Source of the DNA: an uncultured Candidatus Saccharibacteria bacterium
Lineage (GTDB): Bacteria; Patescibacteriota; Saccharimonadia; Saccharimonadales; Saccharimonadaceae
Direction: 5' to 3'
Assembly (NCBI GenBank): GCA_946646285.1
Contig: CAMPCN010000001.1
Location: forward strand, 64,233-128,232
DNA: 64,000 nt
The first letter of the stretch is position 1. Every line of letters begins with the position of its first letter. Below, in pieces: positions 799 to 21,369 of the stretch. The notes beneath the pieces were generated by a model. That model searched no databases. It was given only the letters and a program-made list of their open reading frames with translations, and was not told the DNA's origin. The position numbers and the translations under genes were made by a program.

Positions 799-1863
799 TT
801 AATGTAGTGAAATATAAACTTCGTCGTCTTTCTTTTCTTTAATACGTTTCGCTTGTTGGGCGATGGTTTCAATGGAGAAGTCTGAGTTGTTGGCGAGATC
901 AATCATATTTTGGTCGGTTTGTTCGGTGACTTCTTTTATTTCTGTCTGACGCTTTTCTTCGGCCTCTTCCTGCTGGATTCTTTCTTGCTCTGCTCTTTCG
1001 GCTTCGATTTCAGCAACCATTGAATCTGGCTTTATGATAGTGTCGTTGTACTTTACGGCTTCATCACTTAGTGGATTACTTGGGACGATTGGTTTCGGTG
1101 CTGAAATTGACGGGTTATTTATGACGGGGTTATCTGGCAATGCAGGCGGTTGAGGCATTGGATATGCCTGAGGCTGTTGCATTGTTTGTGGCTGCGTAGT
1201 CTGTTGTAGTATTTGTTGATTGAGCTGGCCGTTATGATTAGTGATGGTCGTGTTTTGGTTGTGGGCATTATTTTCAATAGCTGCGCGCATTTGACTAATA
1301 GCTAGATCATGGCGTGCCGATGCTCCATCTGTGAGAGTTTGATTGATTAGATTGTTGCTGGCGGTTGTATTCTCGAACATGTCGGGAGTATCGTGAGCTT
1401 CGGCGTAGACTTCTTCTTTTACGCCAGAATTAAGAGTTGTGCCTTTAATAGCGTAACCCTCAGTATCGATAATGTCGGCGAGAAATGAAAGGCGGTGGAG
1501 AGCTTCTTCTTGGTCGATATTTTTAGTGCGGACTTTTTCGGTTTTCTTTGGGGCGGTAATTTTAATAGTCGTCTCTGGCTCGCCTGGCTCCCATGTGCGA
1601 ATATGTGGCTTGAGATAAAAAGATACAACAGCGGACAGATAGGTTTCCATCGGCTGATCTTTCTTTAATGGTAAAGCGAGCGCGCCAAGTAGGATGATTG
1701 GCGGTATTAAGATGACAATAAAAGGTGGAAAAACCTGCCATAATAAAACACCCAAGCCAATAAGACCACCTATAATCATAAGGTAGACGAATTGACGAAA
1801 ACTAAAAGGCCCGAGGAGTTTATCATCGGCCTCTACATCTTGGGGGACCTTATACTGAGCCAT
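799..1863 (-). CDS. PrgI/VirB3-like T4SS membrane protein with a long Q/P-rich and E-rich C-terminal extension
   Basis: The N-terminus AQYKVPQDVEADDKLLGPFSFRQFVYLMIIGGL plus two TM helices and LPLKKDQPMETYL matches the PrgI-family pattern. At 354 aa it is about three times the usual length. Its stop overlaps the SD of the VirB4-like gene. Confidence 0.6.
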   Translation of the reverse strand: MAQYKVPQDVEADDKLLGPFSFRQFVYLMIIGGLIGLGVLLWQVFPPFIVILIPPIILLGALALPLKKDQPMETYLSAVVSFYLKPHIRTWEPGEPETTIKITAPKKTEKVRTKNIDQEEALHRLSFLADIIDTEGYAIKGTTLNSGVKEEVYAEAHDTPDMFENTTASNNLINQTLTDGASARHDLAISQMRAAIENNAHNQNTTITNHNGQLNQQILQQTTQPQTMQQPQAYPMPQPPALPDNPVINNPSISAPKPIVPSNPLSDEAVKYNDTIIKPDSMVAEIEAERAEQERIQQEEAEEKRQTEIKEVTEQTDQNMIDLANNSDFSIETIAQQAKRIKEKKDDEVYISLH

Positions 1864-1869
1864 ACTTAT

Positions 1870-1878
1870 ATTTTAGCA
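1870..1878 (-). promoter_or_regulatory. Extended -10 (TGcTAAAAT) 6 nt upstream of the PrgI-like ATG; leaderless candidate
   Basis: The minus strand reads TGCTAAAAT-ataagt-ATG, with no SD between. Confidence 0.45.
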
Positions 1879-1923
1879 TAATCATTAATTTTTATGGTCA
1901 GTGTAGAAGCATTTTGTAGAGTT

Positions 1924-4731
1924 TTAATCAAGATTTATGCCGAACATTTCGCGAACTTCTTTATTCATGGAGTTGCGTTGGTTAATGGCACTATTCTGAT
2001 TTAGTGCAGCGCGCTGTCTGTCGAATGCGTTATAAAGTTGAGTACTGACACGTACGATGTTTCCGTTTACGTTTCTTTCTATATATTGGTCAGGATGAAT
2101 TTCCAGCAGGGCGCCATTCATGTCTTTTAGGGTGGAACTCTTAGAGCTGACGAGCTGGCTAGCAACCATATTGTTGACGTAGCTCATAATTTGATTCTCA
2201 ATCATGCCTTGGTGAGCATAGAACCAAGCATCCTGTCTTTGATGATTCTTGAACTTACTCATATCAAAGCCACCAGTGAGAAGCGTATTGAGTGTGCCGA
2301 GTTGCTCACCATCCATGAGCCCAGATACGGCGGCGGAGCGAATGTATTTTTCTGGAATTAGGAGTGGGTACTCTTCCCCGTTAGCACCTGTTTGGATTGG
2401 GATAGTGCCATCTTTGATTAACTCGAACATTTCCTTGAATACTGTGCGATCCTGGGAAGCGACTGCTGACCAGCCATTGAGATCGCTAAAGATTTGCTGA
2501 AGCGAGGCTTTTTTAAGCTTATTACTTACAGCAGTGCCATCGTTCGGCATGTTGCCACCAGAAAGAAATGTCTTCATGTCGATGTAAGATTCGATATTAT
2601 TTTCTGGATGGTTAGGGTCGTTGCCATCGCTCATAGCGCGACGAATCATATTAGCTTTTGACCATGCCCAGAGGTATAAGTTTTCTTTCTTGAGGCCTAA
2701 GCCAGTGTCTGCGATAGCTTTTTGCATGGCGAAATCGTTAGATATTTGGTTGGAATTATCAACTAGAGTGCGGATAAGGTCGCCGTGGTCGCCGCGCTTT
2801 GCCATGATAGTTATAGCAGCCGAAGCAGAGTTGTAGTCTTTAGTGTTAAGTGCCTCGATAAACTGTTTCTTGACATAGCCGCCAGCTGGTGAATCGTCAT
2901 AGAGTTCTAGATAATTACTCTTCATCTCGGAGTCGACGCGGCGTTTTTGTGAAATAGCATCAGCAAGAACATCGTTAACTGCGCGTTTGACAGCCAATTC
3001 TTCTGCGCTGCCGGCAACTGGGGAATTATTTTGACGAAAAGCGGCAGTAACTTGATTGTGTATATGATTGTTGACTCGTTGATTTTCATCGCTAAGAGCA
3101 TCGCGTATACGCTTGGCGCGATTTTCCATATTGTTTCGTGCTACGCTGTGTTGGCGCGTTTTTACAATGTGATCATCAATAATAGCATCTTCAAAGGTGC
3201 GGTTGGCGTTGGCAATTCGTGCATTGCGCATATGGCGAACGATCGGGAGTCCGGTTGCTGAGCCATTATCGAAACCTTCATCTATATCAGTTTCAAATTG
3301 AGTACGGGCAATTTGGTTTTGCATTTTACGTGCCTGCATATCCAAGTAGCGAGCGCCGCGTCCGTTTAGTCGTTTACGATCGCGTCCGCTAATCATGCTA
3401 GTAGCAGCTCTCGTCATATAGGTATCTCTATTGTTAGCCGTAGTCTGTTGGAGATCGAATTCGCGATTAGTGCGACGCTGTTCCAACCAACGAGCTAAGC
3501 GGTTGTGTGGAAGTCTATTTGTGCTATTGAGCTGACGTGCGCGGGCGAGTGCTTGCCCTTCAGCGGCACGGCGACGCAATAAGCCAGTGGCAGGATCAGT
3601 AGTGCGGCGGATAAAGTTGCCGATACCGCCAAGGACGGTGCCAGCCATGAGCATGAGTGGTATAGACATAAATAATGGTAGGACTTGGATTGCGATGCCA
3701 AGAACGACACCGAGCCAACTAGTAGCGGAAGTGATTGTTATGAAACCAGCGAGTTGTGCCGCGCCGTATAATACACTAAACATTGGATAAAAGATAATCA
3801 TGCGAGTAAATAATTGATACCAAGTACGGAACCATTTCTCAGTATTTGGGAGAAGGTAACAGACGAAGGCGAATGGTGAAACCATGACAAGTAAGAATAT
3901 GAGTGCTTGGCGAGCGGCCATAGTAATAATAGCTGAGATTACGGCAATTGCGCCTGATAAGATAATAGGAATTAAGAGCCATATAATACCAGTAATGCCT
4001 CCGGCAAAAGTTAGAGCGACCGCGCCGCTCACTGCTCCAATACCTAAGAGGGTGGCAACTATACTGGCGACGGAGGTATTGGCGGCGATTTGGCTAATTG
4101 TGCCCTTTTGGATCGCCTGCTCTTGAATATTCTCGAAGATATTGCGCAAAGATATACCAAAGATATTACTGAGATCTACGGCTACTGTACAGATGGTGTA
4201 ACTAAGATTAATTAAGATTGCGGCAATAACTAAACGCGGTAGCATACGTTTGATACCATAGTTGTTTATGCCGACACCGGTAAGTTGCGAGAAGATGATT
4301 GCCAAGAAGAAAAGCACGAAAATAAGATTGGTGATATTGCGAATATAATCCCAAACGACATGGATTGGCGAGGTTGGATCGTTTGGTATAGGGTCTACTA
4401 ATAATAGGTTATCGAGAACGCCGTATGCTCCGTCAATAATATTAGCTAGAAGTCCAGTACCCGGACAGACTAGCCAGCCGATACCGCCAACTTGATCGTA
4501 GCAGGTTGGATTGTCGGTGGTCTGTTCTGCCGCCGTGGTGCCATTGGTGGCTTCGTCGGTATTCTCTTCTGTGTTTTCGTCGTCTGTAGTGTCTGCGGGA
4601 GTTGTAGTGGAAGTATCTGGGTTTGTAGTGGCCGGATCTGTAGCGGTTGCAAAAACAGGACTACTTATAAGGCTAATGCTCAAAGCAGTAATTAATAGAG
4701 ATAAGGCTATTCTTTTTAACCACCTACCCAT
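1924..4731 (-). CDS. VirB6/TrbL-like polytopic membrane protein with signal peptide, T/D/E-rich linker and ~500-aa soluble C-terminal domain
   Basis: This 935-aa ORF has an N-terminal signal-like helix and a low-complexity TTNPDTSTTTPADTTDDENTEENTDE segment. Roughly 8 hydrophobic helices span aa 130-400. It sits upstream of the PrgI- and VirB4-like genes. Confidence 0.45.
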   Translation of the reverse strand: MGRWLKRIALSLLITALSISLISSPVFATATDPATTNPDTSTTTPADTTDDENTEENTDEATNGTTAAEQTTDNPTCYDQVGGIGWLVCPGTGLLANIIDGAYGVLDNLLLVDPIPNDPTSPIHVVWDYIRNITNLIFVLFFLAIIFSQLTGVGINNYGIKRMLPRLVIAAILINLSYTICTVAVDLSNIFGISLRNIFENIQEQAIQKGTISQIAANTSVASIVATLLGIGAVSGAVALTFAGGITGIIWLLIPIILSGAIAVISAIITMAARQALIFLLVMVSPFAFVCYLLPNTEKWFRTWYQLFTRMIIFYPMFSVLYGAAQLAGFITITSATSWLGVVLGIAIQVLPLFMSIPLMLMAGTVLGGIGNFIRRTTDPATGLLRRRAAEGQALARARQLNSTNRLPHNRLARWLEQRRTNREFDLQQTTANNRDTYMTRAATSMISGRDRKRLNGRGARYLDMQARKMQNQIARTQFETDIDEGFDNGSATGLPIVRHMRNARIANANRTFEDAIIDDHIVKTRQHSVARNNMENRAKRIRDALSDENQRVNNHIHNQVTAAFRQNNSPVAGSAEELAVKRAVNDVLADAISQKRRVDSEMKSNYLELYDDSPAGGYVKKQFIEALNTKDYNSASAAITIMAKRGDHGDLIRTLVDNSNQISNDFAMQKAIADTGLGLKKENLYLWAWSKANMIRRAMSDGNDPNHPENNIESYIDMKTFLSGGNMPNDGTAVSNKLKKASLQQIFSDLNGWSAVASQDRTVFKEMFELIKDGTIPIQTGANGEEYPLLIPEKYIRSAAVSGLMDGEQLGTLNTLLTGGFDMSKFKNHQRQDAWFYAHQGMIENQIMSYVNNMVASQLVSSKSSTLKDMNGALLEIHPDQYIERNVNGNIVRVSTQLYNAFDRQRAALNQNSAINQRNSMNKEVREMFGINLD

Positions 4732-4843: not shown

Positions 4844-5359
4844 ATGTGTGTATATAATTATATGTTTGGATTAATGAAAGCTAAACAAAAGAGTTCGGTT
4901 GTAAGAGTTGGGTTATTATTGGTAGCCTTATTAGCCAGCGTCTTTTTTGTTGGAGGTACGGCTTGGGCGGATAGTGGTGAATACTTTGGCTTTTTAGATA
5001 TAAAGATTGCTCCAGATAATAATAAAAAATGCGCAACTGTCTTGAGCTTTTGGTGTGACGATGCGGAAAATGATGGCGAAGCTACTATAAAAGATATTAT
5101 TATTTTCGCTATATCGATTCTATCTGTAGGTATTGGGTTATTGGCGACAATTGGTTTTATAATTTGCGGCTATATGATTATGACGGCAAAGGGGAATGAT
5201 GGGCAAGTTGCTCTAGCGAAAAAACGTATGGTAGAGATAGTAATAGGTATCGTATTGTGGGCGGCGGGCGCTTTGCTGCTTGTCTTATTTATTCCAGATG
5301 AAGAAACCCCTGGTTATGTAAATAGCGGTGCTATTATAAAAATTAAGGAGATAAAATGA
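4844..5359 (+). CDS. T4SS pilin-like (VirB2/TrbC-type) paralogue 1
   Basis: It has a signal/TM region, a Cys pair (KCATVLSFWCDD), then LLATIGFIICGYMIMTAKGNDGQVALAKKRMVEIVIGIVLWAAGALLLV. The start is uncertain; ATG 4874 (MKAKQK...) is plausible because -10-like boxes overlap 4840-4858. Confidence 0.6.
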   Translation: MCVYNYMFGLMKAKQKSSVVRVGLLLVALLASVFFVGGTAWADSGEYFGFLDIKIAPDNNKKCATVLSFWCDDAENDGEATIKDIIIFAISILSVGIGLLATIGFIICGYMIMTAKGNDGQVALAKKRMVEIVIGIVLWAAGALLLVLFIPDEETPGYVNSGAIIKIKEIK

Positions 5360-6084
5360 AGAAAAAGTTACTGATATTGCTGATGGGATTGAGCATGGTT
5401 TTTGCTCAGTTGCTAGTTGCTCCTATCGCGATTGCTGAGGGGGGTAATGCTGGTGGTAATAGTGGTGGCGATAGTGGTAATAATTCTGGCGGTACGGGTT
5501 TTGGAAATGCGACATGCCCAAAAACGCATTTTATGGGGTTGCGCGCTTGGTACGATGGCGAGCTTCTAAATAATGTAGTTTGTGGAGGTGAGCAACCGGC
5601 GAACGAGGGTGAAATTCGTCAGCTTGTCTGGATGATTGTATTAAATATTGCGACGATGGTGCTCCAGATTGCAGGCTATGTTTGTGTTGGCTTTGTGATA
5701 TGGGGTGGTTATCAGTATATGTTGGCGCGAGGTGATAGCGGAAAGGTTGCTAATGGTAAGAAAACGATTACTAATGCTTTGATTGGCATTGTAATCTGCG
5801 TGACGGCTTCATTGATATCTGGGGCAATTGTAGATATTGCTTCAGGTGCAGCAAACGATGCGAACTTCTTTGCGGAAATATTTAATCACGCATTTATGTG
5901 GGCTGGTATTGTCTGTGCGGTAGTGATGGTGATTGGCGGTATTTCGTATGTAACGAGTGTCGGCGACTCTGGAAAAGTGCAAAAAGCAAAAAACACAATT
6001 ATGTACGCGGCGATTGGTCTTGTTATTACCCTGCTCGCGGCGGCGATTGTTAATTTGGTTGTATCAGCCGTTAATGGTGGCTAG
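5356..6084 (+). CDS. T4SS pilin-like paralogue 2, tandem double pilin module
   Basis: Two copies of the module are present. The first is VGFVIWGGYQYMLARGDSGKVANGKKTITNALIGIVICV and the second is VMVIGGISYVTSVGDSGKVQKAKNTIMYAAIGLVITLLAAAIVNLV. The start forms an ATGA overlap with the upstream gene. Confidence 0.7.
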   Translation: MKKKLLILLMGLSMVFAQLLVAPIAIAEGGNAGGNSGGDSGNNSGGTGFGNATCPKTHFMGLRAWYDGELLNNVVCGGEQPANEGEIRQLVWMIVLNIATMVLQIAGYVCVGFVIWGGYQYMLARGDSGKVANGKKTITNALIGIVICVTASLISGAIVDIASGAANDANFFAEIFNHAFMWAGIVCAVVMVIGGISYVTSVGDSGKVQKAKNTIMYAAIGLVITLLAAAIVNLVVSAVNGG

Positions 6085-6089
6085 AGGTA

Positions 6090-7757
6090 ATGATGAAGAA
6101 AATAATTATCGTTTTTGCCGTTATTGTATTGTCGATAATATCTTGTCTGGGTATTAAAAATGTGACTTTTGCGCATCAGTCCGCTTGTGGCGTGGCTGGA
6201 TTTAATGATCCGTTAGTCTGTGGTTACGGAAAAGGGGCAAATGAGGTTGCCCTGGAAAATAGAATAAGAAATATTTTAAATACCGTATATCTTTGGATTG
6301 GTATTATTGCCGTCATTGTAATAGTGATAGGCGGGATATTTTACATGATTTCGGCTGGTGATACGAATAAAATAGCGGGTGCAAAAAATGCTATCATGTA
6401 TGCCATTATCGGATTAGTGGTGGCTTTGGCGGCGTTTGCTATTACGAATTTGGTAATAGGTGCACTTGATGGGCAAGCCCCAGCTGGCGGAGGGGGCGGG
6501 TCTGGCCAGAATACCGTTCCGGCTACTCCGCGACCGTCAACTGAGGAGCAATGGCAAATTAGCGCGGTTAGTTTGTCGAAGCGAACTATAGTAATGGATA
6601 TTGGCGATACAGAAACGATAAAAGCAGAAGTTTATCCGAAAAACGCGGTGGATACTTCTATAACATGGTCGTCGGATAATGGAAAAGTGGCAACCGTTGA
6701 TCAAAGTGGCAAAATTGTGGCAAAAAGTAGTGGTAAAGCGACTATTTCGGCAACCAGCAGAAACGGCGTCGCCGATAAGGCCATAGTAACCGTAAATGAT
6801 CCGGCAAAAAAGGAAGAATCTGGAACAGGAACTCCTAGTACCCCGTCGACACCGAGTACGCCTAGTAACCCTAGTGGCTCTACGAAAGTAACACTAACTG
6901 TGGGTTCTACGTCAATTCTAGATGAGCATACAACTACGGCAAAGGTTACTGGCAATAAAGGTGTTGTAAGATGGTCGTCAAGTAATAGTGCGGTAATGAC
7001 GGTAAACTCTAATGGCGTAGTTACAGGCAAAAAGCCTGGGACTGCTACTTTGACGGCTAAGACTTTAGATGCAAAGAGCAACAGTGTCACGCTAACCAAG
7101 AGTATTACAGTGCGGGAAATAAAGATACTATGGGTTGGGAATAGTAAGACTTACGTGGAAGATATTGATAAGAAAGCGGCTGAAATGCTGAAGGGACGTG
7201 GCTATAGCGTTAATACGACAAGAGTAACTAAAGGCGGAAAATCTTTGAAGTGGAATTATACGAATCAAGGAACGAATATTAAGAAATACTACGACTACGT
7301 CGTTTTACAGGAGCGGACTGGATCTGCTAAAAGTGAGAGCCAATTTTACGACGGGGCTCTTGCAATAGCTAAGGCAGTAAAGGCAAAAAATAGCGACGTA
7401 AGAGTATACGTACGTAAAGTTTGGTACTTAAGGGATTCTAGTACCAGCACTAGAGATACTGTAAATAAAATAGCAACAAATGTAGCTCGTAAAATTGCCT
7501 TAAACGCTGGAGTTTTTTCGGATACGACTGATGATGGTGATGCTCTATATAAACTTAAAGCGAGTGGGCGTAAAGCTTTTAAGGATGATCGGCATCAGAG
7601 TAAAATGGGAGCCTACACGGCAGCAGCCTGTATTGTTTCGAAAATGTTTAAAATCGATCCGACGACTATTACATATATTCCTGGAAGCTTCTCTTCGTCT
7701 GAGAAAAACTCTTTAAGCGCATTGAAGTCAATAGCCAAGCAGGAATGTTATAATTAA
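6090..7757 (+). CDS. Pilin module - Gly linker - 2x Big_2 Ig-like - SGNH/GDSL-like esterase fusion protein
   Basis: The N-terminal pilin module is VIVIGGIFYMISAGDTNKIAGAKNAIMYAIIGLVVALAAFAITNLV. Two Big_2-like repeats follow (ITWSSDNGKVATVDQSGKIVAKSSGKATISA and VRWSSSNSAVMTVNSNGVVTGKKPGTATLTA). The C-terminal domain carries ILWVGNSKTY (block I Ser) and KDDRHQSKMGAY (DxxH). Confidence 0.7.
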   Translation: MMKKIIIVFAVIVLSIISCLGIKNVTFAHQSACGVAGFNDPLVCGYGKGANEVALENRIRNILNTVYLWIGIIAVIVIVIGGIFYMISAGDTNKIAGAKNAIMYAIIGLVVALAAFAITNLVIGALDGQAPAGGGGGSGQNTVPATPRPSTEEQWQISAVSLSKRTIVMDIGDTETIKAEVYPKNAVDTSITWSSDNGKVATVDQSGKIVAKSSGKATISATSRNGVADKAIVTVNDPAKKEESGTGTPSTPSTPSTPSNPSGSTKVTLTVGSTSILDEHTTTAKVTGNKGVVRWSSSNSAVMTVNSNGVVTGKKPGTATLTAKTLDAKSNSVTLTKSITVREIKILWVGNSKTYVEDIDKKAAEMLKGRGYSVNTTRVTKGGKSLKWNYTNQGTNIKKYYDYVVLQERTGSAKSESQFYDGALAIAKAVKAKNSDVRVYVRKVWYLRDSSTSTRDTVNKIATNVARKIALNAGVFSDTTDDGDALYKLKASGRKAFKDDRHQSKMGAYTAAACIVSKMFKIDPTTITYIPGSFSSSEKNSLSALKSIAKQECYN

Positions 7758-7768
7758 TTAAAGAGGTA

Positions 7769-8077
7769 ATGATGGATAAGATATTTTTTCTAATAACAGG
7801 CAACGCTCCTACCGACCCATCCAAACAAGTGACGCAGGTTGACGGTGGTGGCACAAACTTACAAACTACGGTTAATAATGTATTGTCAGTAGTATTTACG
7901 TTGGTGGGCGTAATCGCAGTTATTGTAATTATTATTGGTGGTGTTTATTACATTACATCGAACGGTGATGCTGAAAAAATAAAGAAAGGTAAAAATACTA
8001 TAATGTACGGTATTATTGGCCTGATTGTTACTCTTTTAGCATTCGCTATTGTGTCGTTTGTGCTTAATTCGTTCTAA
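7769..8077 (+). CDS. T4SS pilin-like paralogue 4 (minimal, 102 aa)
   Basis: VIVIIIGGVYYITSNGDAEKIKKGKNTIMYGIIGLIVTLLAFAIVSFVLNSF. Confidence 0.75.
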   Translation: MMDKIFFLITGNAPTDPSKQVTQVDGGGTNLQTTVNNVLSVVFTLVGVIAVIVIIIGGVYYITSNGDAEKIKKGKNTIMYGIIGLIVTLLAFAIVSFVLNSF

Positions 8078-8154
8078 ATTTATTTACAAATAAGCATAGT
8101 GGTGTGATAAAATTAAACTAAAGTTTTTTCGTTATTAATAAAGGAGAAATACGA

Positions 8155-8640
8155 ATGAAAACAATTAATAAAATAATAAAGGTGGCGGTCTTGGCGATCT
8201 TTAGCGTCGTATTGCTCGGTGGTCCAATTTTCGCTATAGACGAATGTATAGGTGAGGGTAAGAAATATCCAAATCTGTCTACTAGCGAGGGTATATATTG
8301 TCAACGCATTAAGGTTGGCGATGAATATGTTTCCATCTATGGCAAGACATCGGCTGATTGTGCACAGGCTGGTACGTTAGCGTCTGATCCGGATAGCTGT
8401 AATGGTGACGACCTTAATGACATGGTTAAAGTAATAATTAATACTATCATCTTTGTTGTGGGTATGGTTGCTGTTATTATGGTGATTCTTGGTGGCGTTA
8501 GCTATGCTACTTCCCAAGGTGACACTACGAAGGTTAAGAAAGGTAAAGACACGATTCTTTATGGTATTATCGGTCTCGTAATCGCCATTTTGGCTTACGC
8601 TATTGTTAACTTCATACTTGCCGCTCTTACTAACGGTTAA
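8155..8640 (+). CDS. T4SS pilin-like paralogue 5 (4-Cys variable ectodomain)
   Basis: Signal peptide and Cys-containing variable region, then VIMVILGGVSYATSQGDTTKVKKGKDTILYGIIGLVIAILAYAIVNFILA. GGAGAAATACGA precedes the ATG. Confidence 0.75.
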   Translation: MKTINKIIKVAVLAIFSVVLLGGPIFAIDECIGEGKKYPNLSTSEGIYCQRIKVGDEYVSIYGKTSADCAQAGTLASDPDSCNGDDLNDMVKVIINTIIFVVGMVAVIMVILGGVSYATSQGDTTKVKKGKDTILYGIIGLVIAILAYAIVNFILAALTNG

Positions 8641-8663
8641 TATACGAAAAAACAACTTCTCTT

Positions 8664-8693
8664 AAAGCACCTCTTCTAGGGGGTGCTTTTTTT
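8664..8693 (+). terminator. Rho-independent terminator
   Basis: AAAGCACC / GGTGCTTT stem followed by a T-run. Confidence 0.7.
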
Positions 8694-8740
8694 GGGTAGT
8701 TTATGTTATTATGATTTATAGATAAGGAGATTATTACATA

Positions 8741-9175
8741 ATGAGCAAAACAAAGGAAATCGCGAAAGAGGCAGGTGCAGCTTTGACTATCGCGGCGTTG
8801 ACTATTTCTACGCAAGGCGTTAGTGTATTTGCTGGCGGTAATACTGCTGGCGGTTCTGATGGCGGTGGAGGCAATGGGGGGGCTGGCTCAGCGGGCGAGA
8901 ATGCGCGTGCTGGTGTTTCCAATGTAAACCCAGGTGCAAATACGGACTTAATGTCAATGATCCAGACGATTTTGAATGTCGTTTTTGGTATCATCGGTAT
9001 TGTTGCGGTAATTATGATTATAATTGGCGGCGTAAATTACACTACGTCGCAGGGCGATAGCGCTAAGTTGCAAAAAGCGAAAAATACAATTATGTACGGT
9101 ATCATCGGTTTAGTGGTTGTATTGCTCTCATTTGCAATAGTGAGCTTTGTTCTAAACGGTCTTATTGGTGGATAG
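8741..9175 (+). CDS. T4SS pilin-like paralogue 6 (Gly-rich variable region)
   Basis: GGNTAGGSDGGGGNGGAGSAGE region, then VIMIIIGGVNYTTSQGDSAKLQKAKNTIMYGIIGLVVVLLSFAIVSFVLN. AAGGAG lies upstream. Confidence 0.75.
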   Translation: MSKTKEIAKEAGAALTIAALTISTQGVSVFAGGNTAGGSDGGGGNGGAGSAGENARAGVSNVNPGANTDLMSMIQTILNVVFGIIGIVAVIMIIIGGVNYTTSQGDSAKLQKAKNTIMYGIIGLVVVLLSFAIVSFVLNGLIGG

Positions 9176-9193
9176 AGGGTAACTCGAGTAACT

Positions 9194-9224
9194 ATACCTC
9201 CCCTTTTAGTGGGAGGTATTTTTG
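9194..9224 (+). terminator. Rho-independent terminator
   Basis: 9-bp stem ATACCTCCC / GGGAGGTAT, 8-nt loop and T-run. It overlaps the GTG start proposed by the ORF track for the next gene. Confidence 0.7.
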
Positions 9225-9241
9225 TATGTTATGATAAATGT

Positions 9242-9619
9242 ATGGGTATAAAAAACAAAAAAATTAATAAAACTATCTTTTGTTTCGGCTTAATGATTAG
9301 TAATTTGTTAATTTGTAGTAATACTTTTGCTGAAACGCCGAGTTATTATGCGCGCGAAGGAGCAAGTTCAATCGTAGTCCCAGATGGGCCAGATATAATG
9401 ACAATAATAAAAAACTTGCTAAATACTACGTTTGGAGTTGTAGGTATTATAGCGGTAGTTATGATGATTATTGGTGGTTTCTACTATATGACATCGCAAG
9501 GATCGCCAGAGAGAGTACAGAAAGGTAAAAATACAATTCTGTACGGTATAGTGGGTTTAATAATTGTCCTGTCTGCTTTCGCAATTGTAAACTTTGTGTT
9601 AAGCAGTTTGTTGGGTTAA
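9242..9619 (+). CDS. T4SS pilin-like paralogue 7
   Basis: VVMMIIGGFYYMTSQGSPERVQKGKNTILYGIVGLIIVLSAFAIVNFVLS. The start is moved to ATG 9242 because 9209-9224 is a terminator hairpin. Confidence 0.7.
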   Translation: MGIKNKKINKTIFCFGLMISNLLICSNTFAETPSYYAREGASSIVVPDGPDIMTIIKNLLNTTFGVVGIIAVVMMIIGGFYYMTSQGSPERVQKGKNTILYGIVGLIIVLSAFAIVNFVLSSLLG

Positions 9620-9678: not shown

Positions 9679-10197
9679 TTAATTAATCGTAATGCGTTTT
9701 GGAGCTTCAGTCTTTTCCTTTTCGAAGGAGATAGTAAGGACGCCATCCTTTAGGACTGCCTCTACGCCATCTTCTTTAACTTGTACTGGGAGGGCGATAG
9801 TGCGGCTAAATTCTCCCCAATAACATTCTTGAATATGCCATTGGGTAGCTTTATCGTCTTCCCCACCGTTAAGAACGCCAGAAATGGTAAGGATATTGTC
9901 AGAAATTGAAACGTCAAGATCCTTGCGTTCAATGCCAGCGGTGCGAGCTTTGATGATTAATTTATCGTTTGTTTCGTAAACATCTACAGCTAGCTGACCT
10001 GGAATGTCATCTGCGCTATCATCCCAACCGTCGCCGTCGTCGACATATTCTTCTTCGACGATGGCAGTTTCTTCAACTGGAGTGTTGACTGGAGTTTCCA
10101 CCGGTTCCTCTTCTGCAACTAGTCCAGAGTTATCGCCCTCTAAAAAGGCAGCTGTGAGCTCATCGTCTAAGCTCATTTCGTCTTGTTTGCGAGCCAT
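9679..10197 (-). CDS. Hsp20/alpha-crystallin small heat-shock protein with acidic N-terminal extension
   Basis: Alpha-crystallin core: LAVDVYETNDKLIIKARTAGIERKDLDVSISDNILTISGV ... FSRTIALPVQVKEDGVEAVLKDGVLTISFEK. Confidence 0.9.
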   Translation of the reverse strand: MARKQDEMSLDDELTAAFLEGDNSGLVAEEEPVETPVNTPVEETAIVEEEYVDDGDGWDDSADDIPGQLAVDVYETNDKLIIKARTAGIERKDLDVSISDNILTISGVLNGGEDDKATQWHIQECYWGEFSRTIALPVQVKEDGVEAVLKDGVLTISFEKEKTEAPKRITIN

Positions 10198-10956: not shown

Positions 10957-11355
10957 TTAAACAGTAGTAGAGCCGCCAACGGCGCTGATCACGAAGTTGA
11001 CTATTGCGTATGAAAGGATGGCGATAATTAGGCCGATGATGGCATACATAATAGTGTTTTTGGCGTCGGTAACTTTTTTACTGTCGCCTCCAGAGATGAT
11101 ATAGCGTAAGCCGCCATAGATGAGCATTACGACAGATATGATACCTACAGCGAAAAGAATGGTGTTTGTAATGCGAGTAAAAACGCCGGAAGCTCCGATT
11201 AGTTCGGCCGGCATGCCATTGCCGCGAGCAGCGTCAGCACCAGCTTGAGCTGGATTATCATAATTCATGGCGGCCATTGCGCGACCTGCAAAAAGCGTCG
11301 CGGTAGTTGCAGCGCCAGTGAGAACTTGCCCTGTTTTTTCGATTAATTTTTTCAT
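10957..11355 (-). CDS. T4SS pilin-like paralogue 8 (isolated, opposite strand)
   Basis: VVMLIYGGLRYIISGGDSKKVTDAKNTIMYAIIGLIIAILSYAIVNFVISAV. Confidence 0.75.
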   Translation of the reverse strand: MKKLIEKTGQVLTGAATTATLFAGRAMAAMNYDNPAQAGADAARGNGMPAELIGASGVFTRITNTILFAVGIISVVMLIYGGLRYIISGGDSKKVTDAKNTIMYAIIGLIIAILSYAIVNFVISAVGGSTTV

Positions 11356-12772: not shown

Positions 12773-15700
12773 GTGATAAAGAAGGCTGTTTTATTATTGA
12801 TTTTAGTTGCAGCTGCGCTTGGGGTTGAGATTGCGGTCATTTCTAAAGATAATGTAGGCCTTTTTGGCAATAATGTAAGTAGCAATACTGGCGCACTGGC
12901 GGCAAGTTCTAATACCAAAATCGTCGGCTATAACGCAGATGGTATTTGTGATGCCGTGAAAACCAATAAGGATTTGAGGATTGGTATCAGGGGTTATTAT
13001 GATAGCAAAAGATATTATTTTAATTCGCCTACTGATACATGTAATAATATGTCGACATACACTATAAGAGAGAGTCAGATTAAAAAAGGTGAGGCATATG
13101 TGCGTTATGGGAGGGCGGCGCGGTCGAGTAAAATATATGCAGATGATGTTTTGGTCAAGAATGCTAATAGCTACGGGAGTCGAGCGTATTTCTTTGTTTC
13201 GAATCGGCCGAAGACGGGTATGGGAGACTCTTTGAATTCGTTGAAGCCGGGCGAGAAGACGTTCCTATATCTTGATGTTAGCGGTAAAGGAGTTAGGAGT
13301 AATACGTATGGGGACTTGCGGCTTTTTGTGGTGTATGGAAAATCAGTAGCCGCTGCTGACGTTACGACGTATAGGACAATCGACACCGATATTGCGGCGT
13401 ATAATTCGATTGCTTTTTTTGTTCATACAAATAAAAGTACATATGGTCCATATGCGATGGCGGATGCGGAATATGATAACTATTATAGAGAACAGTCCTC
13501 CGATGGCAGTAATAAGATAATTACTACATATAAGCTGATTTCGAAGAATCTAGTAGGGGGGATACCGGCGGGCGAGGCTATTAAAGGGATAGAGATATAT
13601 CCGTATTATAACTACCCGATCACAAAGGGGCTTTTTAGGCTGTTTAGTTTGTCGCTCTATGGGTACAGCTCATATGGGGGTGGAAAAAGTTATGTAAGTG
13701 TGAATGGGGCGGAGGATGCGATTAGGCACAATGTAGTGAATAATATGCTTGAGAATGCCACGGTAAAGTGGAATATGTCCGGCGGCACGACTTTGCATTT
13801 CTATCACCACTACGTAACGGAGCCGATTATAATAAAGCCTAGCAGCAAACAGAATTATTACGGCATTCCATATGTGAATACAGTTAAATCGACAATTGGA
13901 CAATTTACGCATTATGGTACGGTGAATGATGTCGCGACGGCAAAGAAGAAAAACACGGCATATTTTTCTTATAAGTTAGCAGACACTTTTCAGGCTACAG
14001 TTACAAGTAATCACGGAAAGACGTTCAATGCTGGAAGTGCAATTCCAAACAAAACATTATATATAAATGAAGCATATGAAAAGAACGACAAGATAGGGAC
14101 GAGAAAAACCGAATTGCAAAATGGAAACCTCCAGTTTATTCGTAATTCGTTTGGTTTGAAGGGTGATGGCTATTACCTAGGCCTTGATTGTAGCTCGTCG
14201 ATTTATTTGGCCGTCGGTAGAGATGTGGCGACATTAAGTCCGATGGCGGACTCGGGTAGGTACTTCAGTAATGGGCAGGTATCCATGTTGGGTGGATTGA
14301 GTGTTTCTGCTGATAAGGTGGAAAAGTACCTGCGCAAAAAAGGTTCATTGAAGAATAGCCAGCATATGACCAGTGAAATGTATAAGTCGAACTATTCGAC
14401 GTATATCAAGACCACTTATGGTAATCAGAAGATTTATAACGGATATGCATTGGCGTTGCCGGGTGATATTATCGATGTGTATGGTCACGTGAGGATGGTG
14501 TCTGGATATAGCCATGTCGTGTGCAAAAAGGATGGTGTTTCGACAGATAAATACAAGAATGGTTTTTGCGACGCGCATGGTGGAATAAATCCAGATAAGA
14601 GTTATGTCATTACGACGGAGGTTGGCACTCGCCATCAGAAAGTATACCAGAGAGATGCAACGCATATCGCGGCTTCTAAGACGGGCTGGAAATATACCCT
14701 GAATCCTCAGTTGACGGATTTGAAGTCAGTAGATGATCTTTACAATAAGAATAAAGGGCTGTTATCGATTTTCAAGGTTAATTTGAAATATTCGTTTACT
14801 TCCCTGTTTAATTCCAATTACTATGCTTTTAGATATAAAAATATAACGAATTATATTGCGAAGAACAAAATTGAAAAACCAGTTGCCAGGTTGGCTTTAG
14901 ATAAGTCTTATAATAACTTGAATCAGACTTTGTATGATTATTTTGCGAATAATAAGAGACTAAAAGGTACGTTGTTTACGAATTATGTTATTGACGCGAT
15001 TAGAGTTGAGATAAATGGCACAACGTATTATGAATATCCAAGACAAACGACAATATTTTCGTTCTATTCTGATATTACGAATACGAAGATTACGAATGCG
15101 ATAAAGAACCTTAATTATAAGAATAAGAATTCAATCAAAATTAGCGTAAAATTTGGACCAAACATTAGTGCCGTTAGGACGGCAGCGGGGGCGGATAGTA
15201 GTGGATATATCAAAATTCTGGATACGACGAATTTAACGGCAAATATCATCGTTAAATCCACTAGTGTAAAGTTGAATAAGACGAGCTTATCGGTGTTGAC
15301 CGGAAAGACAACTTCTCTGACGGCGACGGTTGTACCCTCAAGTACGACGAATAAGGCCGTGACTTGGACGAGTAGCAATACTAATGTAGCAACGGTTAGC
15401 GCGAGCGGCATTGTAAAAGGAGTGGGTAATGGAAAAGCGATAATCACAGTAAAGACTAATGATACGGGAAAAACAACGACGGCAACGGTTACGGTGACGA
15501 CGGCCGTGACTAGTGTAAAGCTATCGAAAACGAGCACCACAATTAATACTGGCAAGACTGAAAAGTTAGAGGCTATCGTTTCGCCGAAAGCGGCATCAAA
15601 CAAGACCGTGACTTGGAAAAGTAGCAACACGAGTGTAGCGACGGTTACTAGTGTGGGAATAGTAACAGCGAAGGGCGTCGGCACAGCAACGATTACGGCG

Positions 15701-16876
15701 ACAACGAATGATGGTGGAAAGAGCGCTTCGGCGACCGTGACCGTCGTAAAGCCTACAGTCAGTGTGACTGGTATTAAAGTATCGAAGACTAGCATAAGTT
15801 TGTTGATTGGGGCGACAGAAAAGATTACGGCGACAGTGAAGCCGTCGAACGCAACGAATAAGGCTGTAACTTGGACGAGTAACAATACGAGTGTGGCAAC
15901 TGTTACCGGTGAGGGGACAATAGTGGCGGAAGGGGTCGGCACAGCAACGATTACGGCGACAACGAATGATGGTGGAAAGAAAGCAACCGTAAGTGTTACA
16001 GTCTCGCCGATTAGAGTGCAATCGATAACGTTGAGCAAGAATAGTGCAACATTAGAGGTGGGTGAAACGAGTCAGATTAGTGCTACGGTTTCGCCGTCGA
16101 ATGCAACGAATAAGGCTGTAACTTGGATGAGTAGCAACACGAGTGTAGCGACGGTTACTAGTGTGGGGATAGTGACAGCGAAGGGCGTCGGCACAGCAAC
16201 GATTACGGCGACAACGAATGATGGTGGAAAGAAAGCAACCGTAATCGTGACGGTGTTTAGCAATGAAATAATTAAGGACAACGGTGGTACTGAAGACGAA
16301 GCGGCAGATGATGATATTGACGCGATTCCCACTGCGAACATAAAGCTTAATACGGCGAGTGCGACAATTAATGTTGGCAGTACAGTGACCTTAACCGCTA
16401 CGGTTACGCCGTCGAATGCAACGAATAAGGCTGTAACTTGGATGAGTAGCAACAGCAATGTTGCAACCGTAAGCGCATCTGGTGTCGTAAAGGGTGTATC
16501 TGTCGGTACAGCGACAATTACAGTAAAGACCAATGACGCCGGCAACTCGGCAATGGCAACAATAACGGTGGAAAAGTCTTCATCGAAGCCGTCTGGGGGC
16601 GGCAGTGACGGCGGTTCGGGAAATTTCGATGAGAATTCTGAAGGAAACGGGGACTCTGGTGGTCCTGGCGGGAATGGTGGTTCGGGAAATTTCGATGAGA
16701 ATTCTGAAGGAAACGGGGACGGGAATGGTAACCCTGACAATAGTGGCGGCGAGAATGATGTTGAAAATGGCCCGATGGGTAGCGTGAGCGAGATGGTGCG
16801 AGTAGTTGTTGTGTCCTTGATTGCAGTTACCCTGATTGGTGGCGGTGTGCTATTTGTGCTCAATAAGCGGAAGTAA
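12773..16876 (+). CDS. Giant surface protein: N-terminal anchor/signal, ~800-aa unknown region with candidate Cys/His hydrolase motifs, 5x Big_2 Ig-like repeats, GS/GN-rich repeat, C-terminal TM anchor
   Basis: 1367-aa ORF with five ~85-aa repeats carrying NKAVTW(T/M)SSNT(S/N)VATV...G(T/K)A(T/I)IT. Candidate catalytic motifs are GLDCSSSIY (Cys at 14189-14191) and PGDIIDVYGHVRMVSG (His at 14486-14488). The C-terminus VVVVSLIAVTLIGGGVLFVLNKRK looks like a TM anchor. Confidence 0.75.
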   Translation: MIKKAVLLLILVAAALGVEIAVISKDNVGLFGNNVSSNTGALAASSNTKIVGYNADGICDAVKTNKDLRIGIRGYYDSKRYYFNSPTDTCNNMSTYTIRESQIKKGEAYVRYGRAARSSKIYADDVLVKNANSYGSRAYFFVSNRPKTGMGDSLNSLKPGEKTFLYLDVSGKGVRSNTYGDLRLFVVYGKSVAAADVTTYRTIDTDIAAYNSIAFFVHTNKSTYGPYAMADAEYDNYYREQSSDGSNKIITTYKLISKNLVGGIPAGEAIKGIEIYPYYNYPITKGLFRLFSLSLYGYSSYGGGKSYVSVNGAEDAIRHNVVNNMLENATVKWNMSGGTTLHFYHHYVTEPIIIKPSSKQNYYGIPYVNTVKSTIGQFTHYGTVNDVATAKKKNTAYFSYKLADTFQATVTSNHGKTFNAGSAIPNKTLYINEAYEKNDKIGTRKTELQNGNLQFIRNSFGLKGDGYYLGLDCSSSIYLAVGRDVATLSPMADSGRYFSNGQVSMLGGLSVSADKVEKYLRKKGSLKNSQHMTSEMYKSNYSTYIKTTYGNQKIYNGYALALPGDIIDVYGHVRMVSGYSHVVCKKDGVSTDKYKNGFCDAHGGINPDKSYVITTEVGTRHQKVYQRDATHIAASKTGWKYTLNPQLTDLKSVDDLYNKNKGLLSIFKVNLKYSFTSLFNSNYYAFRYKNITNYIAKNKIEKPVARLALDKSYNNLNQTLYDYFANNKRLKGTLFTNYVIDAIRVEINGTTYYEYPRQTTIFSFYSDITNTKITNAIKNLNYKNKNSIKISVKFGPNISAVRTAAGADSSGYIKILDTTNLTANIIVKSTSVKLNKTSLSVLTGKTTSLTATVVPSSTTNKAVTWTSSNTNVATVSASGIVKGVGNGKAIITVKTNDTGKTTTATVTVTTAVTSVKLSKTSTTINTGKTEKLEAIVSPKAASNKTVTWKSSNTSVATVTSVGIVTAKGVGTATITATTNDGGKSASATVTVVKPTVSVTGIKVSKTSISLLIGATEKITATVKPSNATNKAVTWTSNNTSVATVTGEGTIVAEGVGTATITATTNDGGKKATVSVTVSPIRVQSITLSKNSATLEVGETSQISATVSPSNATNKAVTWMSSNTSVATVTSVGIVTAKGVGTATITATTNDGGKKATVIVTVFSNEIIKDNGGTEDEAADDDIDAIPTANIKLNTASATINVGSTVTLTATVTPSNATNKAVTWMSSNSNVATVSASGVVKGVSVGTATITVKTNDAGNSAMATITVEKSSSKPSGGGSDGGSGNFDENSEGNGDSGGPGGNGGSGNFDENSEGNGDGNGNPDNSGGENDVENGPMGSVSEMVRVVVVSLIAVTLIGGGVLFVLNKRK
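15250..16575. repeat. Five ~252-258-bp coding repeats (Big_2 units) with long near-identical DNA stretches
   Basis: The 44-mer gtcggcacagcaacgattacggcgacaacgaatgatggtggaaag occurs exactly at 15677, 15935 and 16187. Units 2 and 4 share ~115 bp at roughly 95% identity. Confidence 0.85.
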
Positions 16877-19389: not shown

Positions 19390-21369
19390 ATGGATTTCGA
19401 AAAAGAGCAAAAAAATGAAGCTCTAGATTCGTTTGGTCAGCAAGATGGTGTAAATATGGATGAAAAACCCATAGATTCAACCGTCGATAATGTAACCGGG
19501 GGCGATTCTAGTGAGGTAATAGCGAATAGTACGGCTGGAGAAGAAGTTACTGAGATGGATAGCAGCGATGCGGCTGAAGAAAAAACTACAGAAGCGGGCG
19601 CTAGTGACGCGGCTGAAGGAAAAACTACAGAAGCGAGTGCTGGTGATGTAACTGAGGAGAAGGCTACAGAGATTAGTGCGGATAGTTTAGCTGGACAAAA
19701 CGTGACAAGCACCGCTGGAGTTGGTGTAATTAATACTAGTAACGGCGAAACGAAGAAAAAAGGTCACGGTCGTGTTTTGGCGCTAGCGGCAGTATTAATA
19801 CTAATAATGGTTGGCTGTGTAGGCGCATATTTTATGTTATTACCGAAGCCGAGCGATAAAAAAGAAGACAAAAAAACTGAGGAGAAAAAAGAAGAAGTAT
19901 CTTCATATCGCTTGAGCGGAAATGATTTGAGTGATTTTGATTTGCGTTTCTTGCAGATTGAAGGAAAAGAAGACAATTTAATATATAGCCCACTTTCGAT
20001 TAAGTATGCTTTGGCGATGCTTAAGGATGGCGCTGGCGGTGAAACAAAGAAGCAAATTGAAGATTTAATTGGCGATTATAAGGCGAAAAAATATATTAAT
20101 AGTAAGAACATTTCTCTTGCTAATGCGATGTTTATTCGTGATGAATACAAAGAACAAGTGTTGGACAGCTATATTACTGGCTTGAAGACGAATTATAATG
20201 CCGATGTACTCTACGATTCCTTCGCGGCTCCTACGGCGATTAATAATTGGATTAGTGATAAGACTTTAGGGCTAATTAATAATGCATTAGGTCAAGAAGA
20301 TCTTGATGGGCTAAATTATGCATTAATTAATGCTTTGGCGATTGATCAAAATTGGAATTATGTGTTGCAATGTCAGCCACACTCAAGCGTGCCATGTAAA
20401 ACGCAACCCGATGGGTCGACTATGTATAATATTAGATACGATCATGAGAATTATAACCAATATATCCCCATTGTGGTAGATGAAAATGATTTTCCTGCAA
20501 TGAAGTTCAATAATTTAGATAATAGAAAGTCTGTTAAGATTGGTGCAAGTTTTAATAAATACGACATCATTAAGGATAAGGGTGAAGATGCTATTAGGAC
20601 GAAAGTAACCGAGGAATATAAGAAGTGGTTGACGACCGATGATGGTAAGTGGGTTTTGGATGACTATAAGGAAGATCCAACGCGTCATACAATAGACCCT
20701 TCTGATGTAAAAGCAAATGTGGAACAGTATATAAAAGAATTGAAGAACAATTATGGTAGAGAGAATTCTTCAACCGATTTCTACTTTAGTGATGCGAGTG
20801 ACGCGAAAGTGTTCGCAAAAGACCTAAAAGAGTATGACGGGAACACTTTGCAATATGTCGGTATTATGCCGAAAAATACGGACTTAAAGACTTTCATAAG
20901 TGATTTTACAGCCGAAAAGGGGTCAGAGTATATTAAGGGCCTTAAAGAATTGAAGAAGGAGAACTTTAAAGATGGAGTTGTGACGCGTATTGATGCGAAT
21001 ATTCCACTCTTTAAATATGATTACAACTTAGCTCTGAAAGATGACTTGGTTGCGATGGGCGTGAAAGATGTTTTCGAATCGGGCAAGGCTGACTTGTCGA
21101 GTCTCTCGAAAGAAGGATCGTATATTGGCGTAGCTAAACATAAAGCTAATATAGAGTTCTCAAATGAAGGCATTAAAGCTGGTGCTGCAACCATAATGGG
21201 CGGTCTTGGCGGCGGCGGTATCGGATTCGAGTATCTATGGGATGTGCCGGTAGAAAAAATTGATTTAACATTTGATAAACCGTTTATATATCTAATTCGC
21301 GATAAGAACAGCGGCGAAGTTTGGTTTGTCGGTACGGTCTATGAGCCTCTAGAAAAAGTTAAAAAATAA
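19390..21369 (+). CDS. Membrane-anchored serpin-family protein with acidic repeat N-terminus
   Basis: An N-terminal (S/A)xD(A/V)xE(E/G)K(T/A)TE x3 is followed by a TM helix (VLALAAVLILIMVGCVGAYFML). The serpin core shows NLIYSPLSIKYALAMLKDGAGGETKKQIEDLIG, hinge NEGIKAGAAT and C-terminal FDKPFIYLIRDKNSGEVWFVGTVYEP. Confidence 0.8.
   Translation: MDFEKEQKNEALDSFGQQDGVNMDEKPIDSTVDNVTGGDSSEVIANSTAGEEVTEMDSSDAAEEKTTEAGASDAAEGKTTEASAGDVTEEKATEISADSLAGQNVTSTAGVGVINTSNGETKKKGHGRVLALAAVLILIMVGCVGAYFMLLPKPSDKKEDKKTEEKKEEVSSYRLSGNDLSDFDLRFLQIEGKEDNLIYSPLSIKYALAMLKDGAGGETKKQIEDLIGDYKAKKYINSKNISLANAMFIRDEYKEQVLDSYITGLKTNYNADVLYDSFAAPTAINNWISDKTLGLINNALGQEDLDGLNYALINALAIDQNWNYVLQCQPHSSVPCKTQPDGSTMYNIRYDHENYNQYIPIVVDENDFPAMKFNNLDNRKSVKIGASFNKYDIIKDKGEDAIRTKVTEEYKKWLTTDDGKWVLDDYKEDPTRHTIDPSDVKANVEQYIKELKNNYGRENSSTDFYFSDASDAKVFAKDLKEYDGNTLQYVGIMPKNTDLKTFISDFTAEKGSEYIKGLKELKKENFKDGVVTRIDANIPLFKYDYNLALKDDLVAMGVKDVFESGKADLSSLSKEGSYIGVAKHKANIEFSNEGIKAGAATIMGGLGGGGIGFEYLWDVPVEKIDLTFDKPFIYLIRDKNSGEVWFVGTVYEPLEKVKK

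Follow-up and report, generated by a model that had tools for sequence, protein, structure and literature searches.

Why should a gene lying in an array of type IV secretion system (T4SS) pilins encode an esterase-like domain, and on what would such an enzyme act? The question is raised by a gene at positions 6090-7757 (+ strand) of the window, that is, the whole 64,000-nucleotide stretch of contig CAMPCN010000001.1 from an uncultured Candidatus Saccharibacteria bacterium that was analysed here. Its product is a fusion protein in which a VirB2-like pilin module is followed by two immunoglobulin (Ig)-like spacers and a C-terminal domain of predicted SGNH fold. The parts are known (Patescibacteria pilin arrays, Big_2 domains and the SGNH/DUF4886 fold), and it is their conserved fusion that is undescribed; the preliminary description of this DNA was aware of no VirB2-like pilin with a catalytic passenger, and the literature searched yielded no account of an enzyme-bearing pilin of the VirB2 type. 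The fusion gene is intact and under purifying selection, its domain architecture is assigned with high confidence, and the protein is tentatively read as an extracytoplasmic esterase that is held on a pilin scaffold and probably acts on cell-envelope glycans. The features of the gene are as follows.

6090-7757, + strand: whole fusion gene, 555 amino acids, stop codon included; ATG start, with the Shine-Dalgarno sequence AGAGGT just upstream
6090-6173, + strand: signal peptide, residues 1-28, within a hydrophobic segment at residues 1-29; probable AxA-type cleavage between TFA and HQ
6174-6257, + strand: N-terminal extracytoplasmic loop with a Cys33...Cys44 pair (CGVAGFNDPLVCG) found in all orthologues, probably a disulfide
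6258-6473, + strand: T4SS_pilin module, residues 57-128; two transmembrane helices and a short basic loop (SAGDTNKIAGAKN)
6474-6563, + strand: Gly-rich flexible linker, with GGGGGSG at residues 133-139
6564-6794, + strand: Big_2 Ig-like domain 1, residues 159-235 (PF02368)
6831-6875, + strand: linker between the Ig-like domains, TPSTPSTPSTPSNPS, residues 248-262, rich in Pro/Thr/Ser
6879-7103, + strand: Big_2 Ig-like domain 2, residues ~264-338 with approximate boundaries; the second Big_2 stretch in Pfam
7104-7754, + strand: predicted SGNH-fold, DUF4886-like esterase domain, residues 339-555 (217 residues)
7143-7145, + strand: Ser352, predicted nucleophile in the block I motif G-N-S-x-T, at the beta1/helix junction of the model
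7308-7310, + strand: Gln407 at the block III position (Asn in canonical SGNH enzymes), following beta3
7584-7595, + strand: Asp499-x-x-His502, predicted block V acid/base pair, aligned with the D-x-x-H of 4i8i and 4s1p

As this list indicates, most of what the preliminary description said of the layout stands. The pilin module is at the N-terminus and leaves a C-terminal passenger of 427 residues beyond it, and the motifs ILWVGNSKTY and DDRHQSKMGAY were located at residues 346-355 and 499-509, as claimed. The fusion protein matches Big_2 (PF02368) above the Pfam cutoff with 77.2 bits (E=1e-21) in two stretches, the best of them at residues 159-235. The Gly linker and the two Big_2 repeats were thus recovered, but the Pro/Thr/Ser linker, which had been placed ahead of both repeats, lies between them. 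This linker is confined to the closest clade and is shorter by one 6-residue repeat in L003; the junction between Big_2 and the SGNH domain (TVREIK-LWVGNSKT) is common to the fusion protein and its Firmicutes homologues.

Whether the N-terminal hairpin is a pilin module or merely a generic signal anchor was one of the points by which the preliminary description could have been refuted. Pfam assigns residues 57-122 to PF18895 with 36.8 bits against a cutoff of 26.6, spanning model positions 7-71 of 71, and the NCBIfam Mbov_0395 pilin-like conjugal transfer family is scored at 39.7 bits against a cutoff of 40. The layout of PF18895, in which a signal peptide precedes two hydrophobic helices with a basic loop (SAGDTNKIAGAKN), is found here as well, with hydropathy segments at residues 1-29, 59-93 and 95-128 and, in the AlphaFold2 (AF2) model of the hairpin, helices at residues 51-87 and 92-126 with a predicted local distance difference test (pLDDT) score of ~90. 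When a hidden Markov model (HMM) was built from the other array modules in a leave-one-out manner, the N-terminus of the fusion protein scored 82.5 bits (E=2e-25), and shuffled controls (n=200) reached at most 9 bits. Among the eight other modules, six share 41-53% identity with it and the two most divergent ones share 24-29%, and the hairpin keeps the signature residues of the array pilins. Because of the leave-one-out score and the identity to most of the modules, the hairpin is not a generic signal anchor; judged by sequence, it and the eight other modules are true paralogues, with a similarity beyond chance. Pfam is the sole source of the putative tie to canonical VirB2: the fusion protein has no match to PF04956 (TrbC/VirB2) in Pfam, the paralogue at 9209-9619 passes that family's cutoff (30.0 vs 27.9), and further array paralogues come near it. 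A lipoprotein anchored through a lipobox at Cys19 was also considered and rejected, as Cys19 is not kept in the orthologues.

The C-terminal domain gave noise alone as a single sequence, both in phmmer against the PDB and in an NCBIfam scan, and a word-indexed protein search with it returned one relative. An exhaustive search of 1.84 billion representative proteins returned 381 relatives at E<=1e-3; in a cluster look-up, no annotation name was attached to any relative in the source databases. The AF2 model of the domain has a pLDDT of 97.6 and five strands alternating with helices, which gives the three-layer alpha/beta/alpha fold with a central parallel sheet typical of the SGNH superfamily (clan CL0264). 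A Foldseek search ranks the DUF4886 structure 4i8i first among PDB entries (TMq 0.76, E=1e-9), ahead of ~45 GDSL/SGNH chains that are mostly esterases; of the 47 PDB matches at E<=1e-3, all have the SGNH/GDSL fold except that at rank 32. Acetyl-xylan esterases, TesA, PAF-acetylhydrolase, and sialate and peptidoglycan O-acetylesterases are among these matches. According to the model, the domain is therefore an SGNH fold closest to DUF4886; an SGNH-type domain had been predicted for this ~210-residue region.

The catalytic motifs agree with this fold. In an alignment of 116 homologues, the conserved residues are G350, N351, S352, T354, G382/G383, Q407/E408, D499 and H502, most of which are 88-100% conserved, with G382 and E408 at 78%. 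Ser352 (99%) aligns with the GNS of 4i8i and 4s1p; block II, which supplies the Gly of the oxyanion hole, is represented by G382-G383 after strand 2 (78% and 88%); Gln407 (98%) stands in L-Q-E, where 4i8i has Q-Q; and block V is D499-D-R-H502, with Asp at 96% and His at 99%. A family profile of 41 sequences finds 4i8i at E=1e-13 and 4s1p at E=1e-9 with G-N-S and D-x-x-H in register, so that the block I Ser and block V DxxH proposed earlier are conserved in the family and coincide with the motifs of solved structures. PF16227 (DUF4886) is matched by 31 of the 41 profile members and by 48 of 100 family representatives, and the domain of the fusion protein is best regarded, at the level of sequence, as a divergent sister branch of DUF4886 and not as a scored member. 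From motifs and model together, esterase activity of the C-terminal domain is likely.

The fusion is also stable across genomes. In the Saccharibacteria, which were scanned with a 6-sequence alignment of the domain, the pilin module and the esterase domain are in one open reading frame (ORF) in all nine species-representative genomes that encode the domain, with 48-96% identity of the C-terminal domain; the same fusion occurs in metagenome scaffold L001 and in P0003, P0005 and P0056. The conservation in related genomes that the preliminary description left to be checked is thus present, and the link to pilin genes survives the rearrangement of the array in L006 and L007. A full-length alignment retains the signal peptide, both Cys pairs, Cys33/Cys44 and Cys514/Cys553, the hairpin, the flexible linker, the two Ig-like domains and all catalytic motifs; in 10 of 10 orthologues the N-terminus has a hydrophobic stretch up to an A-x-A-like site, and the linker is Gly-rich or acidic and of varying length. 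Against the four closest genomes (L002-L005), the ratio of non-synonymous to synonymous substitution (dN/dS) of the fusion gene is ~0.1 overall, with 0.00-0.20 for the N-terminal part and pilin module and 0.09-0.15 for the spacer and esterase. The nearest genomes are rumen and gut Saccharibacteria metagenome-assembled genomes, one of them labelled Nanosyncoccaceae. Within the Saccharibacteria clade of the esterase family, P0002 has a single transmembrane anchor.

The genomic setting is that of a T4SS. By the local HMM, eight genes of the window encode nine pilin modules in all, which agrees with the eight modules counted earlier besides that of the fusion protein; they are arranged as follows.

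4844-5359, + strand: pilin gene (local HMM)
5356-6084, + strand: pilin gene with two tandem modules, 242 amino acids (local HMM)
7769-8077, 8155-8640, 8741-9175 and 9209-9619, + strand: pilin genes (local HMM)
4844-9619, + strand: co-directional pilin array holding the fusion gene, seven genes with eight modules (Pfam, HMM)
10957-11355, - strand: ninth pilin module in a separate gene, which was left out of model building (HMM, 84 bits)
799-4731, - strand: divergent T4SS core genes, namely a 935-residue polytopic protein and a PrgI/VirB3-like protein (PrgI PF12666)

The fusion gene therefore sits with other pilins beside T4SS genes, as is expected of a T4SS_pilin. The array genes overlap or lie up to ~100 nucleotides apart, and no terminator-like hairpin was found between 5356 and 8640; because of this and of the Shine-Dalgarno sequence just upstream, co-transcription of the fusion gene with the array is likely from the sequence. 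Contigs L017 and L018, which encode an identical PrgI protein, continue into a TraC-like gene (PF26593) and then a P-loop_TraG/AAA_10 VirB4-type ATPase, and judging from them the TraC-like and VirB4-like genes continue beyond the start of the window. The 935-residue protein (1924-4731, - strand) is not matched by Pfam; at least five hydrophobic segments are packed into the first 370 residues and a hydrophilic part of ~560 residues comes after them. Its gene is the one immediately upstream of PrgI in the operon of the T4SS. Because of this layout and its place beside PrgI, it is a candidate extended-VirB6-like protein. The double-module gene precedes the fusion gene also in L002-L005, L008 and L010, and many of the top pilin-profile matches (among the best 120 of 5998) have 216-231 residues, a length consistent with double-module proteins. 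The ninth pilin gene lies past an HSP20 gene (9679-10197) and keeps the same relative place in L002-L005, L008 and L010.

Is an enzyme on a pilin an isolated case? A survey of 80 metagenomic loci with 364 pilin-module ORFs gave a median tail of 3 residues after the module, and three ORFs had tails longer than 100 residues, all with passengers above the Pfam cutoff.

L020, 2022-3551: pilin, two Big_2 domains and Peptidase_C39_2 (Pfam)
L022, 159-986: pilin, Gly linker and NlpC/P60 (Pfam)
L049, 14796-16205, - strand: pilin and VanY (Pfam)

Two of these three passengers are peptidoglycan peptidases. Together with the esterase fusion they would form a small class of pilin-tethered enzymes, rare but not unique. 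In a protein search with the pilin profile, the best 120 of 5998 matches were all short pilins, which could not bring such fusions to light. N-terminal extensions longer than 150 residues were found in 13 of the 364 sampled pilin ORFs; for instance, L019 546-1964, L040 6836-8152 and L033 7335-8528 have 300-390 residues before the hairpin with no Pfam match, those of L040 and L033 being Cys-rich.

The relatives of the esterase domain also bear on the interpretation. Among 100 family representatives, T4SS_pilin is matched by 7, and the accessory domains are Big_2 (41), dockerin (4), F5/8-type-C (2), NlpC/P60 (2), Peptidase_C39_2 (2), Amidase_5 (1) and an endolysin-like domain (1); because of these partners, glycan or cell-wall substrates are favoured over lipids. 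The Dockerin_1 domain in 4 of the 100 points to putative cellulosome-associated esterases in rumen Firmicutes. P0006 and P0018 (~640-750 residues, three Big_2 domains) have a dockerin-like repeat near the N-terminus, e.g., VTGDVTGDGNHTLTDIVK. In addition, the Firmicutes proteins P0059/L014 and L013 carry a PF18895-like hairpin at the N-terminus, ahead of a domain of this esterase family, with 4 of 8 such proteins tested above the cutoff. In the hairpin-esterases at L014 7581-8603 and L013 1407-2516, a conserved Cys precedes the hairpin and an SCW motif follows it. The idea that the fusion is restricted to Saccharibacteria was rejected, since Pfam detects the hairpin in Firmicutes proteins that the first local HMM had missed.

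From this material a working model can be assembled. The protein would be exported by the Sec pathway and lose its signal peptide. It would then have the standard VirB2 topology, with both termini on the outer side of the membrane and the basic loop on the inner side. Beyond the second helix, the Gly linker, Big_2, the Pro/Thr/Ser linker and Big_2 would form a stalk, with the predicted SGNH serine esterase at its tip; the Cys pairs conserved in the loop before the hairpin and in the esterase domain support such an extracytoplasmic stalk and enzyme. The pilin module may tether the enzyme to the T4SS, whether as a membrane protein around the channel or as a minor pilus subunit; membrane anchoring and display on a filament are equally compatible with the evidence. 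In its chemistry the enzyme would be a deacylase, most likely one that takes O-acetyl off an envelope glycan such as peptidoglycan, in the wall of the host bacterium or of the epibiont itself; this deacylation may prepare the wall for the T4SS machine or for the peptidases that the sister pilins carry, a wall-conditioning role in which the esterase would be a functional analogue of VirB1-type hydrolases. A wall glycan as the substrate is suggested by analogy and is more tentative than the enzyme's chemistry. An O-acetyl esterase for an envelope glycan, or a lipase, had been the guess of the preliminary description, and the sister pilin fusions with peptidoglycan peptidases lend it indirect support. 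It is favoured because the three other long pilin passengers are NlpC/P60, VanY and Peptidase_C39_2; because the esterase domain is elsewhere joined to NlpC/P60, Amidase_5 and endolysin-like domains, and also to dockerin and F5/8-type-C carbohydrate-binding modules; and because the structures matched include O-acetylesterases for peptidoglycan and sialate as well as acetyl-xylan esterases.

Several observations weigh against this model of a pilin-held wall esterase. On the side of the pilin, the hairpin model found generic helical hairpins at E>1 and no pilin among solved structures (Foldseek); the pilin profile found no pilin among the PDB sequences; and hhalign comparisons with VirB2 and TraA sequences were not significant (E=0.058 and 0.39). 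A VirB2-type filament could not accommodate a 45-kDa passenger on all of its subunits, and therefore the fusion protein would have to be a minor subunit in a pilus. Moreover, no pilus is on record for these organisms, nor has one been demonstrated in monoderm T4SSs (PMC12102498, PMC12857230). On the side of the enzyme, the canonical block III Asn (GxND) is absent and replaced by Gln407, a variant typical of DUF4886, and DUF4886 has no characterised member (PMC9487903). The relation to DUF4886, which the preliminary description had named as a family to search, is upheld by profile, structure and many relatives, but the fusion protein itself does not reach the PF16227 cutoff of 26.7 bits, scoring 18.1 bits (residues 401-540) as a whole and 22.1 bits as the domain alone. 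The dockerin-bearing homologues suggest plant-glycan esterases, so that peptidoglycan is not singled out as the substrate. Finally, the neighbours of the hairpin-esterase gene in L014 are LCP/PASTA, P-type ATPase, LtaS-like sulfatase, BrkB and GatB genes, with no T4SS nearby; because of this example, a PF18895-like hairpin can act as a plain membrane anchor, and the hairpin-esterase architecture, which occurs in several Firmicutes, is not unique to pilin arrays.

The last of these points leads to the alternative that survives best, although it is still unlikely. The hairpin may be a non-polymerising two-helix anchor, and the protein a plain membrane-anchored ectoenzyme that has no part in the T4SS and serves the epibiont's own envelope, for example by de-O-acetylation of its own wall polymers during growth. 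The Firmicutes proteins fit this well, as the gene in L014 stands beside LCP/PASTA and LtaS-like genes; so do other members of the esterase family, which have a single transmembrane segment or a signal peptide (P0002 being one with a single anchor), and so does the want of a demonstrated monoderm pilus. What such an anchor does not account for is the closeness of the hairpin to the neighbouring pilins, with 41-53% identity to most of them and the signature residues kept; the place of the gene inside the array with short gaps, in a linkage to pilin genes that survives rearrangement; and the three other enzymes that are likewise tethered to pilin modules.

The nature of the substrate gives rise to a second alternative, which is improbable. 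The SGNH domain could be a lipase, phospholipase or thioesterase acting on host membrane lipids, with the pilin stalk bringing it to the host surface and fatty acids being supplied to the Saccharibacteria, which have no fatty-acid synthesis (PMC10633639). TesA/lysophospholipase L1, PAF-acetylhydrolase and GDSL lipases do occur among the structural matches. However, the closest relatives in structure and sequence are DUF4886 proteins and carbohydrate esterases; the partner domains of the family are glycan-binding or wall-lytic (Big_2, dockerin, F5/8-type-C, NlpC/P60, Amidase_5); the sister pilin passengers are peptidoglycan peptidases; and a thick actinobacterial wall stands in front of the host membrane.

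It is also conceivable, but distinctly improbable, that the pilin module serves as an export and targeting leader and that the Big_2-esterase part is cut off in the Gly-rich linker and released. A flexible Gly linker does follow the second transmembrane helix directly, and its character is conserved in the orthologues; for a parallel, RP4 TrbC is an established case of a VirB2-family pilin that is trimmed at its C-terminus. In this case, however, no protease or cleavage motif was identified, and a signal peptide would be enough for secretion, which leaves the conservation of the pilin module (dN/dS 0.00-0.20) unexplained. The idea that the SGNH domain is an acyltransferase that puts acetyl onto a glycan, like PatB and OatA, can hardly be credited, as the matches to PatB and the acyltransferase SsfX3 (E ~4e-4 to 9e-4) are far weaker than those to esterases and the neighbouring genes that were scanned include no membrane acyl-donor partner (MBOAT or AT3).

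If the pilin-held esterase is accepted as the preferred reading, a bolder extension can be considered, although it is rather doubtful. A T4SS pilus, or a pilin-lined channel, may be decorated at low stoichiometry with wall-active, pilin-fused enzymes, for which different lineages would use an SGNH esterase, an NlpC/P60, a VanY or a C39-like peptidase; such a filament would carry the tools to strip and open host peptidoglycan at the contact site. We know of no precedent for an enzyme-armed conjugative-type pilus.

The fusion bears on the role of the T4SS in these organisms. It has been reported that the T4SS and its pilin array are essential for epibiotic growth of the one genetically tested Saccharibacterium (PMC10633639, PMC12857230), and an enzyme-bearing pilin provides a concrete experimental handle on this role. 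The passengers, an esterase here and NlpC/P60, VanY or a C39-like peptidase in relatives, suggest that the cell wall is modified where epibiont and host meet. VirB1 is reported to be missing from most Patescibacteria that have VirB2 homologues (PMC12102498), and pilin-fused wall enzymes could offset this absence from the T4SS loci. In addition, the passenger is a natural epitope-sized tag for asking whether monoderm pilins leave the membrane and form a filament, and the fusion would give the DUF4886 branch of the SGNH hydrolases (PMC9487903) its first biological setting.

Beyond the array, some further genes of the window deserve mention. A 1367-residue protein at 12773-16876 (+ strand) combines five Big_2 domains with a signal or anchor at the N-terminus and a hydrophobic segment at the C-terminus, and may be a surface adhesin near the array. 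A 659-residue protein at 19390-21369 (+ strand) has a serpin domain in its C-terminal part, which is unusual for a reduced epibiont genome; a 997-residue protein with VWA and bacterial TSP3 repeat is encoded at 22754-25747 (+ strand), and a 1569-residue protein with no Pfam match at 41159-45868 (+ strand). The remainder is ordinary chromosome, with genes for GroEL, Mur ligases, SufBD, ValRS, TsaD and DnaE. The guanine-cytosine (GC) skew is positive in every 2-kb bin and the cumulative skew climbs over all 64 kb; the window therefore lies within one replichore.

Comparison with known systems shows from which sides the fusion protein can be approached. The DUF4886 structure 4i8i (BACUNI_01406) shares the G-N-S nucleophile motif, the block III Gln and the D-x-x-H, but the domain of the fusion protein belongs to a divergent, mostly Firmicutes/Saccharibacteria branch that is usually joined to Big_2. 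The O-acetylesterases of the SGNH superfamily, such as Ape1 (4k3u), the sialate O-acetylesterases 6njc and 7pzg, and the acetyl-xylan esterases 7ddy and Axe2, have the same fold and the same motif positions; they differ by an identity of 12-18% (Foldseek E 1e-6 to 1e-3) and by the Gln that takes the place of Asn in block III of the present domain. VirB1, PrgK, TcpG and CwlT are extracytoplasmic, envelope-active enzymes in T4SS loci, as is predicted for the fusion protein, and CwlT and PrgK carry NlpC/P60, as does a sister pilin fusion. Unlike these VirB1-type hydrolases, the fusion protein has an SGNH fold with predicted esterase chemistry and no lytic transglycosylase, lysozyme or NlpC/P60 domain, and its enzyme is tethered to a pilin module where theirs have a single transmembrane segment, so the analogy would be a functional one. 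The Firmicutes hairpin-SGNH proteins (P0059/L014, L013, P0052 and P0029 among others) likewise have a two-helix hairpin followed by the same esterase family, and some, e.g., P0014, also have an Ig-like spacer; however, a signal peptide is lacking and the hairpin is of another subtype (Cys...hairpin...SCW), and L014 lies in a wall-biogenesis neighbourhood and not in a T4SS or pilin array.

The closest setting is that of the Patescibacteria T4SS pilin arrays, which have already been described (PMC12102498, PMC10633639, PMC12857230). In Southlakia epibionticum, SEML1_0006-0019 form a VirB2-like pilin array (see also Quinonero-Coronel et al. 2025), and the arrays are part of an essential T4SS (PMC10633639). 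Here, too, tandem divergent pilins of the PF18895/TrbC type lie beside MPF-FATA-like genes (PrgI, VirB4, VirB6-like) on a Saccharimonadia chromosome. The described pilins are small, whereas the fusion protein adds to the same module a passenger of 427 residues with an enzyme domain.

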